Source: an uncultured archaeon (lineage in GTDB: Archaea > Asgardarchaeota > Lokiarchaeia > Sigyniarchaeales > Promethearchaeaceae). From it: DNA of 10,932 nt. The translations under genes were made by a program, and so were the position numbers. The stretch lies in contig CAYRPF010000089.1 in assembly GCA_964426185.1 (NCBI GenBank), positions 1 through 10,932 of the forward strand. The letters are read 5' to 3'. The notes under the pieces were generated by a model. The model was given only the letters and a program-made list of their open reading frames with translations, searched no databases and had not been told where the DNA came from. How positions within the stretch are numbered: position 1 is the first letter of the stretch; the number at the start of each line of letters is the position of its first letter. Below are positions 3,984-10,868 of the stretch, in pieces.

Positions 3984-4055
3984 TGGACTTGGGGGGAATT
4001 GAACCCCCGATTTCACGGATGCGAACCGTGCGTTATACCACTAAACCACAAGCCC
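3984..4055 (-). tRNA. tRNA-Ala(CGC), intronless, CCA not encoded
   Basis: Reverse complement GGGCTTG TG GTTT AGTGGTA TAAC G CACGG TT-CGC-AT CCGTG AAATC GGGGG TTCAATT CCCCC CAAGTCC A forms a full cloverleaf with the G3.U70 alanine identity pair and A73 discriminator. It is followed by TCT, not CCA. Confidence 0.97.
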
Positions 4056-5301: not shown

Positions 5302-5883
5302 ATGGCAAGTTCGGCTATATATTGCAGTATATGTGGATTTAAAAATGATCAATTCGCAATTTTTTGTCAAGGTTGCGGAGAGAAACTAATACATGAAAAT
5401 TCGCCCGCACAGCGTGAAGTATATTCTGAAAACATTCAAAATCAAAATAATGAGATCCAATTTAGTTCTTTTGGAGATAGGCTGATAGCATTTATTATTG
5501 ATAGTATTCTTTTTGATGTAGTTGTTTCTGTAATCGGGTTTGCTCTTGGTAAGAATTGGATTTTTGGCATGGGAACACATTGGAGTGACAGCATCCCAGG
5601 CGTTATTTTCGGCTTTCTTTACTTCTTCTTGTTTGAAGCGTATAACCATGGACAAACACCTGGAAAGATGCTCTTAAAGATAAAAACGGTGGATTCTAAA
5701 ACCTTTGGCGATATTTCACTGCAGCAAGCAGTCATTCACTCAATTGGAAAGAATTTATTCTTGATTATTGACCTAATCCTGGCGTTGTTTATGAAAGAAA
5801 AGCCGGAAGATGCGCAAGAAGAGAATCGTATCCGTTTTACTCAAAGATTGGCGCAGACAAGCGTCATTTCGCTTAAGGTTTAA
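5302..5883 (+). CDS. RDD-family membrane protein with N-terminal zinc ribbon
   Basis: CSICG..CQGCG zinc ribbon; FGDRLIAFIID (R and first D); hydrophobic helices; GQTPGKMLLKIKTV motif; 193 aa. Confidence 0.88.
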   Translation: MASSAIYCSICGFKNDQFAIFCQGCGEKLIHENSPAQREVYSENIQNQNNEIQFSSFGDRLIAFIIDSILFDVVVSVIGFALGKNWIFGMGTHWSDSIPGVIFGFLYFFLFEAYNHGQTPGKMLLKIKTVDSKTFGDISLQQAVIHSIGKNLFLIIDLILALFMKEKPEDAQEENRIRFTQRLAQTSVISLKV

Positions 5884-5916: not shown

Positions 5917-5935
5917 CATGGCAAAATTTTATTAA
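5917..5935 (+). promoter_or_regulatory. Candidate BRE/TATA promoter for the glmS leader transcript
   Basis: CATGGCAAAA-TTTTATTAA. Archaeal spacing predicts a start near 5958-5962, just 5' of the structured region. Confidence 0.5.
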
Positions 5936-5965
5936 CTTAGGATTCTGATTAATCTTACTACAATC

Positions 5966-6121
5966 AAGCACGAATAACAAACCTCCAAGTGGGTATGAAG
6001 CATTCGTTAATAAAACCCCAGCACGATCAGATTTTCAGTCAATCAATGAGAAGTTGCAACGGGTTAAAGACATTTGTGCAATAACCATTTGCTTGGAGTT
6101 ACTTTGATAAATTTGTTGCTT
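5966..6121 (+). ncRNA. Candidate structured RNA (glmS 5' leader or standalone sRNA), family unknown
   Basis: A series of nested stems share one axis near 6040, with many G.U pairs that form only on the + strand. Folded by eye, not computed. Confidence 0.5.
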
Positions 6122-6125
6122 ATGT

Positions 6126-6130
6126 AGGTG
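6126..6130 (+). promoter_or_regulatory. Shine-Dalgarno-like site of glmS
   Basis: AGGTG lies 9 nt before ATG 6140 and is complementary to the 16S tail CACCU. Confidence 0.5.
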
Positions 6131-6139
6131 TAAAAGCTC

Positions 6140-7990
6140 ATGTGCGGAATTTTTGGACTGATCTCATCAGAGGAGGATCTCCCCATTGCAAAAATGATAC
6201 GGGAAGGTCTTGAACGTTTGGAATATCGTGGGTATGATAGTGCCGGAATTGCTTTAGTTAATCATGGTACGATAGAAGTACGCAAAAAAGCGGGTCGAAT
6301 TGCGGATATAAATGCAGAGGGATGGCTGGATTCAACTCCAGGAACGTTTGGAGTCGGGCATACACGCTGGGCAACTCATGGGCCTCCCGTTTACAATAAC
6401 GCACATCCCCATGTTGATTGTTCTGGAAAAATTGCTTTGGTTCACAACGGAATCATTGAAAATTATCAAGATTTAAGAAAAGAATTGAAATTACGGGGGC
6501 ATATTTTTCAATCTGATACTGATACGGAAGTTTTTCCCCATTTAATTGAAGAATTTCTTCAGAAAGGATTTGATTTAAAAGATTCGGTAATGGAGGCTGT
6601 AAAGCGATGCCGTGGGGCATTTGGAATTGTAGTTATTCATGCAGATACTCCAGATTATATGGTTGTGGCAAGAAAAGAATCTCCTTTGGTTATCGGGATC
6701 CTCCCTGGTAAAACTACTTTTTGTGCATCAGATATTCCTGCTTTCTTACCCTTAACGCGTAAAGCCATCGTTTTGGATGATAATGAATTAGCTGTCTTGT
6801 ATCCAGGAGAAGTCGAGATTTATCGTATCGATACGGGCGAGAAAAAAGAGCTTAACCATTTCGAAGTAAAATACACCATTGATGCAGCTCAAAAAGTATT
6901 AGATGGAAAACCATACAAATGGTTCATGCACAAAGAGTTGCATGAAGTTCCGCGTAAAATTCGGGATCAAATGGGTATGACTCAAGAACGCCTGGATAAT
7001 TTTGCTCAAGCAATTTTAGATGCAGACCATGTTTACATTACTGCTGCGGGAACGGCGTATTATGCTGCCTTAGCCGGAAAGTTTCAAATAACTCGATTTG
7101 GTGGACCGTATATTCAGTCAATTCTATGTTCAGAGTTTATTGATGCTGTTCCTGAAATGAAACCTAATTCTTTAGTAATTGCAATTTCGCAATCGGGAGA
7201 GACGGCTGATACAATTGAAGCAGTCAGATATGCACGGGAAAAGTTTGGTGCTAAAATTTGTTCTGTGGTAAATGTGATTGGTTCTTCATTAACTCGTTAT
7301 TCCAATGAAGTTATTATTACCACTGCAGGTCCTGAAATTGCTGTAGCATCACAAAAAGCATATTGCACGCAAATTACTGCACTCAGTTTAGTAGCTTTAA
7401 GAATTGCCGAATTACGAAAGAATTATTCTCCCGAAGAATTGACGCGCTACCGAAATGCTTTACTTCACACTGCGGATGTAATAGACAAGCTAATTATCGA
7501 AGAAGGGAAAATCCGAGAAATAGGCGAAAAATTGAAAGATGCAGATAATATTTATTTTCTGGCTCGTGGTTTGGGCCAAGCGGCCTCATTAGAAGGTGCT
7601 TTGAAGTTAAAAGAAATTGCCTACATTCATACTGAAGCTTATGCGGCTGGAGAATCAAAACACGGTCCCATTGCACTAATTGAAGAGGGATTTCCAGTTA
7701 TATTTGTTGCAATTCCAGATCAAACCTATGATAGACTTATTGGAAACATCATGGAAATGAAAAGTAGGGGTGGTTTAATCATTTCTATAGTAGCAGATTT
7801 TGATATTAAAGTTACAGAAATTTCTGATTATACCATTCGGATTCCAATTGAAAATACACCAGAATCAATAATAATGAGCATAGTTCCGTTTGCTTTTGCG
7901 CTTCAAACAATGGCATATTTTATTGCGGATTCCAAAGGTCTCGATCCAGATAAACCCCGCAATTTAGCAAAGAGCGTTACTGTTAAATAA
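6140..7990 (+). CDS. glmS: Glutamine--fructose-6-phosphate aminotransferase (isomerizing)
   Basis: MCGIFG (Cys1 nucleophile), LEYRGYDSAG, GHTRWATHG, HNGIIEN, SQSGETADT, ALKLKE, KHGP and PRNLAKSVTV; 616 aa. Confidence 0.98.
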   Translation: MCGIFGLISSEEDLPIAKMIREGLERLEYRGYDSAGIALVNHGTIEVRKKAGRIADINAEGWLDSTPGTFGVGHTRWATHGPPVYNNAHPHVDCSGKIALVHNGIIENYQDLRKELKLRGHIFQSDTDTEVFPHLIEEFLQKGFDLKDSVMEAVKRCRGAFGIVVIHADTPDYMVVARKESPLVIGILPGKTTFCASDIPAFLPLTRKAIVLDDNELAVLYPGEVEIYRIDTGEKKELNHFEVKYTIDAAQKVLDGKPYKWFMHKELHEVPRKIRDQMGMTQERLDNFAQAILDADHVYITAAGTAYYAALAGKFQITRFGGPYIQSILCSEFIDAVPEMKPNSLVIAISQSGETADTIEAVRYAREKFGAKICSVVNVIGSSLTRYSNEVIITTAGPEIAVASQKAYCTQITALSLVALRIAELRKNYSPEELTRYRNALLHTADVIDKLIIEEGKIREIGEKLKDADNIYFLARGLGQAASLEGALKLKEIAYIHTEAYAAGESKHGPIALIEEGFPVIFVAIPDQTYDRLIGNIMEMKSRGGLIISIVADFDIKVTEISDYTIRIPIENTPESIIMSIVPFAFALQTMAYFIADSKGLDPDKPRNLAKSVTVK

Positions 7991-8017
7991 GCTGTAAAAA
8001 GTGTTACTGTTAAATAA
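7967..8017 (+). repeat. Direct repeat of the glmS 3' end (27-bp period)
   Basis: GCAAAGAGCGTTACTGTTAAATAA (7967-7990) vs GTAAAAAGTGTTACTGTTAAATAA (7994-8017): 21/24 identical, last 15 bp exact. Confidence 0.9.
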
Positions 8018-8051
8018 TAAATTTTTTCTATTTCCTCACTTTATCTCGCTT

Positions 8052-10868
8052 ATGCAACCCGTTTATGACCCTCAGAACATTGAACTTAAGTGGCAGAAGA
8101 AATGGGAAGAATCGAAAAAATTTGAAGTAGAAAAAGATCCGAATAAACCAAAATTTTACTGTTTGGAGATGTATCCCTATCCGAGTGGTAAACTTCACAT
8201 GGGGCATCTCCGAAATTATACCATCGGGGATACATTTGCTCGCTATAAGCGAATGAATGGTTATAATGTATTGTATCCAATGGGATACGATTCTTTTGGA
8301 CTCCCTGCTGAAATTGCCGCGATTAAGAAAGGAACGCATCCTGAGATAACAACTAGAGCAAATATTGCCAGTATTAAGGCCGATCAAAAAAGAATTGGCT
8401 TCAGCTATGATTGGCGCCGGGAAGTATCATCCATTGAAGAATCTTACTATAAATGGAATCAATGGATGTTTCTTAAAATGTACAAGAAAGGACTGGCCTA
8501 TCGAAAGGAATCATTAGTAAATTGGTGTCCCAGTTGTAAATCTGTTCTTGCAAATGAACAAGTGATTAATGGAAAATGCTGGCGTTGTAATTCAATTGTA
8601 GAGCCTAAATTTCTTGCCCAATGGTTCTTCAAAATTCGAAAATATGCAGATGAATTATTGTCAGGATTAGATAATTTGAATTGGCCCGAAAAAGTAAAAA
8701 TAATGCAGCGAAATTGGATTGGTCGCAGTGAAGGAACCATCGCAGATTTCAAAGTAGAAGGAACTGATCAAACTTTAAGCATTTTTACCACTCGTGTAGA
8801 TACAATTTTCGGAGTTACTTTCATGACCATGGCGGCTGAACATCCATGGTGCCGTGAATGGGTAAAAGGGACTGAATATGAGCAAGATTACCACGAATTT
8901 TACAAAGAAGTTATGAAACAAGATCGTTATGAAAGAATGTCGGAAGAATCCGAAAAGAAAGGAATTTTCTTAGGAAAATATGCTATTAATCCTTTAAACG
9001 GTGACAGAATTCCTATATATGCGGGTAATTTTGTGATTTATGAATATGGTGCAGGTGCAGTTATGGCTGTCCCCGCCCATGATCAACGAGATTTTGAATT
9101 TGCCAAGAAATACAACATTCCTATTAAAGTGGTTATTCAACCTTTTGATGGTTATCAGTTAGTTGGCGAAAAAATGGCTCGGGCTTTTGTAGAAGATGGA
9201 ATTTTATTCAACTCTGGAGAATTTACTGGCATGGAAAATCGAGCTGCTATTCAAGCAATTTCTAAGAAGTTACAAGAAATAAAGAAAGGTGGACCAACAG
9301 TCAATTATAAAATTCGTGATTGGTTGATTTCAAGACAACGTTATTGGGGGACTCCGATTCCAATTATTTACTGTGAAAAATGCGGAACAGTCCCTGTTCC
9401 TTATGAAGATCTACCCGTTACATTACCTAAAGATGCTGTGTTTGGAAAATCAGGAAATCCCTTAGAACATAGCCCAACCTTTATGAACGTTTCTTGTCCT
9501 AAATGTGGTGACCCTGCTCGTCGTGAAACTGATACTATGGATACTTTTGTGGACTCTTCATGGTACTTTTTCCGATATACCAGTCCATTTGCGGAAGACT
9601 TGCCTTATCATAAAGAAGATGTGGAATACTGGGCTCCAGTCGATCAATATATAGGTGGAATCGAACATGCAATTCTACATCTTTTATATGCGCGATTTTT
9701 CACAAAAGTTAGCCGTGATTTAGGATTGCATTCAATTGATGAACCATTTAAGGCATTATTGACGCAAGGAATGATCAATAAAGCACATCCTTATTGTGAA
9801 CAATGTGATAAATTCCTTCCCGCTTTGTATGACAAAGATGGCAAATGGGAAGGTGACTATAATCCAGAAACTAAAACTTGTAATACATGCGGTCAGCCAT
9901 ATATACTAAAATCGGCTAAAATGTCAAAAAGTTTGGGAAATACGGTCTCTCCAGATGGAATTATTAAGGAATTTGGTGCAGATACTGCCCGATTTTTCAT
10001 CATGCACGGTGCAAATCCCGAAAAAGAGTTAGAATGGTCCGATTCGGGAGTTAGTGCTGATCACAAAATTCTTCTGCGCATTTGGTCTACATTAACTCAG
10101 AAAATTGAAAAGTTTCGTACAAAAAATGATGTATATGATGAATTCATTCGTTTCCGCCTTCATCGAATGATAAAAAATGTTACTGAAAATTACGAGCAGA
10201 TGTACATTCGAGATGCGCTTACTGAAATCATCCGTTTTACTGAGATTCTAAGAGATTATAAATCTAACATACCTCTCAAGTCTCTCTTTCAACAAGCAAA
10301 AGAAATAATCATTTTATTGTTGGCTCCAGTAGTACCTCATTTCTCCGAAGAATTATGGAATCTAGAAGGTCATAATGAGATGATTGCCATCGCAGAATGG
10401 CCTAAATATGATAAAAGTTTAATTTCTCCCGAAATAGAACTTCATTGGCTTTTTTATGATAACCTTATTGAGGATATTAGAAATATTAAAAAGATCATAA
10501 AAAAGCCGGCTACGAAAGTGACTATTATTGTAGCTGCTCAATGGAAAAATGATTTTGTTAAAACTATGATTGGTCAAGTTTTAGAAGGTCTAAATTTTGG
10601 AGAATTAATGAAAAAGGCAATGTCGAACCAAGATTGGAAACCACATGGTAAGTTGATTAAAGGAATTTTACAGAAGGTGTCAAAAAATCCTGGAAAATAT
10701 ACAGTACCTTTTAGCACTCAGTCTGAAGAATTGAAATTCCTGCAAGATAATATCAGTCTGTTGGAACGTGAAGTAGGACTAAAGGTGACAATTGAGGCAG
10801 AAGAAGAATCTATTGAGAAAAAGAAATCTCAAGGATTACCAGGTCATCCTGCGATTATTTTAGAATAA
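8052..10868 (+). CDS. leuS: Leucine--tRNA ligase, bacterial-type core with archaeal-type C-terminal domain
   Basis: [93 protein letters not shown] and KMSKS. Start reassigned from GTG 8001 to ATG 8052 ([18 protein letters not shown]), which fits the usual N-terminus. Confidence 0.97.

Follow-up and report, generated by a model that had tools for sequence, protein, structure and literature searches.

The preQ1, SAM-II, and cobalamin riboswitches act through outputs in which a loop forms a pseudoknot or a kissing-loop interaction with the ribosome-binding site (RBS). The Escherichia coli rpsO leader, which is an operator rather than a riboswitch, forms a pseudoknot in which the Shine-Dalgarno (SD) sequence lies in a 31-nt loop, and the pre-initiation complex is trapped when S15 binds (PMC3985624). 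Bacterial glmS is subject to two unrelated RNA controls, the glmS ribozyme (RF00234) and the GlmY/GlmZ-RapZ-Hfq system; GlmZ is a trans-acting sRNA that activates glmS by pairing with an anti-SD (PMC5737377). For archaea, the fluoride class was as of 2021 the only riboswitch shown experimentally (PMC8241225). In the literature covered, outside which subscription papers mostly fell, we found no description of glmS control by RNA in Asgard archaea.

Here we describe the leader of an archaeal glmS gene within a 10,932-nt stretch of DNA, referred to below as the window. We conclude that this leader represents a real cis-regulatory RNA family that is limited in range and has not been described before. 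We further propose, with a probability of about 0.6, that it is a repressive translational operator which closes a long-range pseudoknot around the RBS.

The glmS locus and its predicted promoter

The source genome (3.26 Mb, 34% G+C) belongs to the genus of Ca. Harpocratesius repetitus (Asgard Lokiarchaeia/Promethearchaeaceae). Its glmS gene (6140 to 7990, + strand) encodes a glutamine-fructose-6-phosphate transaminase of 616 aa with the N-terminal residues MCG, a GATase domain, and two SIS domains, as assigned by Pfam and named homologues. A leucyl-tRNA synthetase-like gene (8001 to 10868, + strand) starts 10 nt 3' of glmS and is probably co-transcribed with it. Such a leuS-like gene adjoins glmS at most of the loci carrying the leader structure described below, but it is not a constant partner; at three loci (L133, L138, and L145) other genes lie 3' of glmS and the structure is kept. 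A search of the source genome with one query found no relative of NagB. Elsewhere in the window a tRNA gene (67 bits; 3984 to 4055, − strand) lies between a TtuA-like thiouridylase gene and a ValRS-like gene.

On the 5' side an RDD-family gene ends at 5883, leaving a 256-nt gap that is, as an earlier note on this DNA had pointed out, the longest between intact genes of the window. The gap contains a BRE/TATA-like promoter (GGCAAAAT TTTATTAA; 5920 to 5935, + strand), which the note had placed at 5917 to 5935; a like motif occurs in 12 relatives with differing upstream genes. As the motif lies about 30 to 40 nt 5' of the structure in 12 loci, the predicted transcription start (about 5958, TATA + 30) falls close to the first base pair of the structure. 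The SD sequence AGGUG (6126 to 6130, + strand) and the AUG both lie in the linker that joins the base of the structure to a coding target described below, and AGGT, GGTG, or GGAG was present at −10 to −15 in every locus bearing the structure.

The predicted leader folds as a single-axis rod

Nearly the whole predicted 5' leader is taken up by an unbranched irregular hairpin, or rod (5958 to 6127, + strand), which places 51 bp on a single axis over 170 nt and has a U-rich 3' arm. It consists of a core (5966 to 6121) and a variable basal helix, CTACA 5958–5962 with TGTAG 6123–6127, which was absent from the earlier note and extends into the SD. A single-axis rod of this size occurred in 0 of 100 shuffles of the leader; of the 658 long upstream regions in the genome, 7 reached it, among them that of glmS (top 1%). 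The minimum free energy (MFE) of 5960 to 6139, −33.8 kcal/mol, equalled the shuffle mean; in the comparison with dinucleotide shuffles that the note had called for, the fold was no better than the controls (z −0.05 on the + strand, 0.64 on the − strand), an outcome that the note had listed as counting against its proposal. What stands above chance is the single-axis topology of the rod and its conservation, with the MFE at shuffle level.

Every sequence that the earlier note had named was found at its position, and most of its helices agree with the computed ensemble. The AAGCA, CGAAT, CAAA, CTCCAAG, and AACCC helices had probabilities mostly between 0.7 and 1.0, with one end pair at 0.5, and the GCAT (about 0.7) and GCA (0.5 to 0.85) helices were supported as well; the AAGCA/TGCTT helix does stop 4 nt before the SD. 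Of the helix described as 12 bp long, 7 to 8 bp were borne out, whereas its G·U extension reached a probability of only 0.1 to 0.4. The helix proposed between TTTTCA 6032–6037 and TGAGAA 6047–6052 must be given up, as its probability was about 0.2 and it clashes with the conserved fold. In that fold a 7-nt loop at 6034 to 6040 is closed by TCA/TGA and GATT/AATC, and 6050 to 6052 form the unpaired side of an internal loop. The resulting tip domain (6024 to 6053, + strand) carries this 2x3 purine internal loop (GA 6025–6026 / GAA 6050–6052; consensus Y-RA / GMR-R) beneath the terminal stem and ends in the apical loop UUCAGUC (6034 to 6040, + strand), whose unpaired probability is 0.85.

The rod matched no Rfam family and was single-copy in the genome by blastn, nhmmer, and model search. 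It is not the signal recognition particle RNA RF01857, the best SRP RNA match of the genome lying elsewhere (C10:54346-54663, E 1.6e-18), and neither a K-turn nor a 6S-like central bubble was conserved among rods. Conserved occlusion of the SD by the basal helix was also rejected; the RBS opening energy, high in the window at 12.6 kcal/mol, was close to background for the rod loci as a whole, which ranged from 5.9 to 12.6 kcal/mol compared with a genome median of 7.8.

Conservation and range of the rod

A BLAST-type DNA search of 60 relatives yielded no rod homologue above noise, and we therefore gathered glmS upstream regions by protein orthology. A rod of 137 to 192 nt ending near the SD was found ahead of glmS in about seven Promethearchaeaceae lineages, among them Ca. 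Harpocratesius repetitus, Promethearchaeum syntrophicum, and Ca. Lokiarchaeum ossiferum. The Harpocratesius-type lineage comprises the window and the loci L137, L002, L136, L003, L133, L138, and L131, and the Promethearchaeum lineage comprises L004, L141, and L006, the GlmS of L006 being identical to that of P. syntrophicum; the others are L139/L145, L144, L134, L135/L148, and L008, whose GlmS is identical to that of Ca. L. ossiferum. In 14 of the 16 leaders tested, no more than 3 of 100 shuffles reached the size of the rod, and the same test singled out none of 10 further upstream regions of glmS. The rod kept its position between the BRE/TATA box and the SD while the upstream neighbours varied. 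It was absent from the outer lineages and from loci at which glmS is preceded by another gene of its operon (L007, L009, and L146). L142, which has an assembly gap, is counted on neither side, and metagenome matches, which consisted only of distant GlmS loci (38% to 48%), were set aside. One Promethearchaeum genome (G012, locus L005) lacks 171 nt of rod 53 nt upstream of glmS, and the gap is flanked by short T-rich direct repeats; it looks like a clean deletion but may be an assembly artefact.

Sequence conservation across the family was low, with 8 invariant columns in a poor alignment of 13 sequences (46% identity), 3 of them at or beyond the SD. The recurring motif is the 2x3 purine internal loop below the tip, which a strict descriptor recovered, in unchanged register, from 11 of the 16 rods, the other rods being near-misses by eye; this descriptor was derived from the same rods and matches 7% of background regions.

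Two further observations concern the glmS genes themselves. In the sister family (f3; L014 to L029) an AT-rich gap with no rod separates glmS, in most cases, from a divergently oriented NagB-like or SIS-domain gene, an arrangement that suggests a different control of glmS there, probably transcriptional. For two proteins (P0120 and P0122; L138) the database gives a GlmS of 641 aa starting 25 codons upstream, within the rod. GlmS requires an N-terminal Cys, and this start is therefore probably mis-called.

Selection acts on the base pairs of the rod

When six relatives were aligned by sequence only, 93.9% of cells paired and 11 pairs showed double changes, compared with 38% to 50% pairing in slid controls, although kinship inflates both the pairing and the double-change counts. 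Against the consensus pairs of these relatives, aligned by sequence only, the window itself gave weak support (p 0.01 to 0.6), and RNAalifold on the 13-sequence MAFFT alignment returned no consensus pairs, which we attribute to the poor alignment. A covariance model built from the six relatives, with the window excluded, matched 5960 to 6131 over its full length (37.5 bits, E 4.4e-5). A second model (R2) ranked the held-out leaders L008, L006, and L145 first, at 21 to 24 bits against a background of at most 14, and missed five others (L004, L141, L134, L135, and L144). Searched with strict filters through 141 genomes, it gave no match beyond genus g1, so that the wider range of the rod is defined by position, shape, and tip motif, not by model match; pattern matches in an Acidiferrales contig and a Leptolyngbya contig were judged to be chance fragments.

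Pairwise contrasts gave evidence of selection on the pairs. In six non-overlapping contrasts, in which the pairs were predicted from one sequence and scored in the other, there were 32 broken pairs, compared with 55.7 ± 4.6 expected, and 12 double changes, compared with 5.3 expected (p 0.003), 11 of the 12 coming from L139/L145. The window and L002 differed by 7 to 8 double changes against 3.2 expected (p 0.006 to 0.026), and six control pairs lacking rods displayed no pair-sparing effect, one of them being borderline. Among single changes at reference Watson-Crick pairs there were 16 G·T and 5 A·C (p 0.013), which agrees with the claim, made earlier from the G·U pairs of the window, that the element acts as a + strand RNA. 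Conservation, pair-sparing substitutions, this bias, and the single copy together uphold the idea of an undescribed + strand structured leader of archaeal glmS.

The tip loop is complementary to the start of glmS

Nucleotides 6035 to 6040 of the apical loop (UCAGUC) are complementary to codons 6 to 8 of glmS; the target GACUGA (6156 to 6161, + strand; +17 to +22 of glmS) lies in Gly6 (GGA), Leu7 (CUG), and Ile8. The earlier note had missed this complementarity because the loop was paired into a helix there. Loops of the Harpocratesius type, with UCAGUC, match GACUGA at +17 to +22. In Promethearchaeum both sides have changed, loop AAUUAAACC facing target GGUUUAAUU (+16 to +24) at the same site, and each of three synonymous differences in the target is answered in the loop. 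The loop ACAUAG of L139/L145 complements −2 to +4, over the AUG, and the loop UCCACA of L144 complements +4 to +9 (codons 2 and 3). L008 offers only 5 bp, or 10 bp with G·U pairs after melting of the tip, and no clean run was found in L134 or L135/L148, so that among the seven lineages complementarity was clean in four, partial in one, and lacking in two. The loops were mostly unpaired in the nested ensemble (0.5 to 1.0).

When each loop was compared with each initiation region, the matrix was block-diagonal and the pairing largely cognate-specific. With cognate initiation regions Harpocratesius-type loops formed 5 to 7 bp, and with foreign ones mostly 3 to 5; for Promethearchaeum loops the values were 7 to 9 and mostly 3 to 4 (up to 6 for L006), and for those of L139/L145 they were 6 and 4 to 5. 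The fractions of 2,323 genome initiation regions matching as well as the cognate one were 0.037 (window), 0.003, 0.040, 0.11, 0.23, 1.0, and 1.0, and the combined p for run length over the seven lineages was 0.004. Significance was confined to tests restricted to the loop, a first test of a whole-tip duplex against other coding windows having given no significant result. Because the idea had arisen after inspection of the data, we carried out a blind, alignment-free scan in which each 6-mer of the leader was compared with every position of glmS. Among 106 to 188 matches per genome, one position, +17, was common to six genomes of two groups with the letters differing on both sides, and its partner was the tip loop.

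The codons at the target were also informative. Of the Gly and Leu residues conserved among five Harpocratesius-type genes (39 and 32, respectively), only 2 and 4 had an invariant codon, and Gly6 and Leu7 were among them; Leu7 is CUG, the rarest Leu codon of the genome (6.6% of Leu codons). The three relatives of L005 have retained GGU UUA at the target, whereas L005, where the rod has been lost, reads GGG AUA. The presence of CAG or UAA in the loop is explained by its complementarity to Leu7 alone. Mimicry of tRNA-Leu, aimed at the LeuRS encoded downstream, was rejected, since the loops of other lineages are complementary to Met or Cys-Gly and loci with no adjacent leuS still carry the rod.

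The core loop-target duplex in the window is modest (−6.6 kcal/mol), and the linker between the rod base and the target is 28 nt in the window and 16 to 39 nt across lineages. With a 5' arm of 70 to 77 nt and so short a linker, pairing in cis would need a bent rod or an opened base.

Other structured leaders

A different conserved structured leader precedes the uS10 (rpsJ) gene in genera g1, g5, and g6 (G000:C60, about 11720–11913; L157, upstream of 1501). Its basal helix is TTTGGCGAWAGA...GCCAA, it is accompanied by a BRE/TATA-like motif of its own, and with 70 bp it forms the largest upstream rod of the genome; it did not match the glmS model, and we consider it a candidate archaeal ribosomal-protein leader. 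A rod of 48 bp precedes a short lysine-rich gene, Sec61beta-like by eye (G000:C26, upstream of 35428, + strand), and a short tandem array of approximately 30-nt units lies upstream of 14547 on the − strand of G000:C66.

Discussion

We propose that glmS mRNA begins with an irregular rod of about 170 nt, and that the apical loop may pair with the initiation region, at codons 6 to 8 here and at the AUG or codons 2 and 3 elsewhere. Such pairing would enclose the SD and AUG in a long-range pseudoknot loop, within a linker of 26 to 39 nt, or cover the AUG directly, and the paired state would block or trap initiation, making the element a translational operator. It is the likeness of the enclosed SD and AUG to rpsO that leads us to read the operator as repressive. 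Pairing in cis could be helped by bending at bulges or by a stabilising partner. As to the trigger, the low sequence conservation and the shifting target argue against a ligand pocket, and we therefore prefer a protein, which would bind the tip at the conserved 2x3 purine loop and report amino-sugar status (GlcN6P or UDP-GlcNAc), the outcome being feedback on GlmS synthesis. Amino-sugar feedback by way of a protein is probable, its link to amino sugars being drawn from the function of glmS only; we found no conserved candidate protein nearby.

The operator has to be weighed against a true riboswitch, a reading that the earlier note had offered. Here GlcN6P, UDP-GlcNAc, or a related metabolite would bind the RNA and stabilise the loop-coding pseudoknot to switch translation off. 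A pseudoknot from loop to RBS is a common riboswitch output. The idea has some appeal, since the purine loop adjoins the pairing loop and glmS is a gene under a metabolite-sensing RNA in bacteria (PMC7125110, PMC5737377). Nevertheless, we regard it as unlikely; apart from the 2x3 purine loop there are almost no invariant bases across the family, 3 of the 8 invariant columns of the poor alignment lie at or after the SD, and the pseudoknot helix shifts in sequence and position among lineages, which a ligand pocket would not be expected to do. Action in trans, with the rod released as an RNA of about 170 nt by early termination or basal cleavage, or with two transcripts kissing, would remove the geometric problem of pairing in cis. 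The paired 5' and 3' ends of the rod resemble those of a stand-alone RNA, its 3' arm is U-rich, and kissing antisense RNAs typically have loops of 7 nt that pair over 6 bp, but no conserved second promoter was visible between rod and AUG, the conserved SD implies a leadered mRNA, and no conserved cleavage motif was seen, so that we give this arrangement a low probability. The earlier suggestion of a processing substrate gained no support, as there was no conserved bulge-helix-bulge and a similar arrangement could be drawn, by inspection, in L002 only. A leader-peptide attenuator was rejected as well, since AUG-started upstream reading frames varied in position, length (1 to 54 aa), and sequence.

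A constitutive element would shield the 5' end of the mRNA, with the pairing fixing the level of translation or helping to present the RBS and no signal involved. The coincidence of the predicted start with the first base pair of the rod, RBS opening energies near the genome background, and loss of the element in one Promethearchaeum genome are all compatible with it. We nonetheless think it quite improbable, because protection of the 5' end would not call for a rod of 170 nt, a conserved internal loop, and a long-range pairing that covaries, and the loop covers the AUG itself in L139/L145. There remains the reading as a fold that arose by chance, a palindrome in the DNA, or a relic of a MITE, for which an MFE z of about 0, the roughly 1% of upstream regions that fold as such rods, and the clean disappearance of the rod from L005, with short direct repeats on either side, might be cited. 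The single copy, the pair-sparing substitutions, the excess of G·T over A·C, and the synonymous codons frozen at the target have largely refuted it, and we assign it a very small probability.

A repressive operator, if true, would be a third RNA control of glmS, among the archaea nearest to eukaryotes; few cis-regulatory RNAs have been proven in this group. If instead the riboswitch reading were true, the leader would define a new Asgard-native class, with an amino-sugar ligand closing a pseudoknot of very long range between the tip of the rod and the coding start of glmS. It would then be a third and independent RNA route to glmS feedback, and the first riboswitch specific to archaea. The architecture is unusual in that the tip of a 50- to 65-bp rod reads the first codons and its loop tracks synonymous codon changes; selection on synonymous codons at the start of a gene can thus stem from leader RNA. 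The pairing is open to direct tests, since compensatory pairs are known and two carriers of the rod, P. syntrophicum and Ca. L. ossiferum, are cultured.

Comparison with known systems

The glmS ribozyme RF00234 is likewise a 5' leader of the same gene, similar in length and containing a pseudoknot, as predicted here. Unlike the ribozyme, the archaeal leader is a single rod of variable sequence, lacking the P2.2-P2-P2.1 double-pseudoknot core and the invariant catalytic bases; RF00234 had no match at the locus and none over the cut-off in 14 genomes of the family, and the control search recovered it in Bacillus subtilis and three others. With GlmY/GlmZ-RapZ-Hfq the leader shares RNA-RNA pairing near the glmS initiation region and the translational control proposed here, but the pairing loop, unlike GlmZ, sits in the leader itself, and its target is the AUG or coding sequence. 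GlmY and GlmZ gave no Rfam match at the locus, and a search for RapZ (PF03668) found none in 5 genomes (87% to 93% complete) and recovered it in 7 of 14 controls. As in the preQ1, SAM-II, and cobalamin riboswitches, an apical loop is predicted to pair with the initiation region; unlike these and the fluoride riboswitch, the rod has no conserved aptamer core or Rfam match.

The rpsO (S15) operator offers the likeness on which our reading draws. Rfam indicated no relationship in sequence, the glmS stem is about 50 to 65 bp instead of a short hairpin, and the glmS leader serves a metabolic enzyme gene in an archaeal host, with a binding protein only postulated. In both, however, a 5' hairpin loop pairs downstream, by prediction in glmS, and places the SD in a pseudoknot loop of about 30 nt, and the control that we propose for the glmS leader would act where that of rpsO acts, at initiation (PMC3985624).
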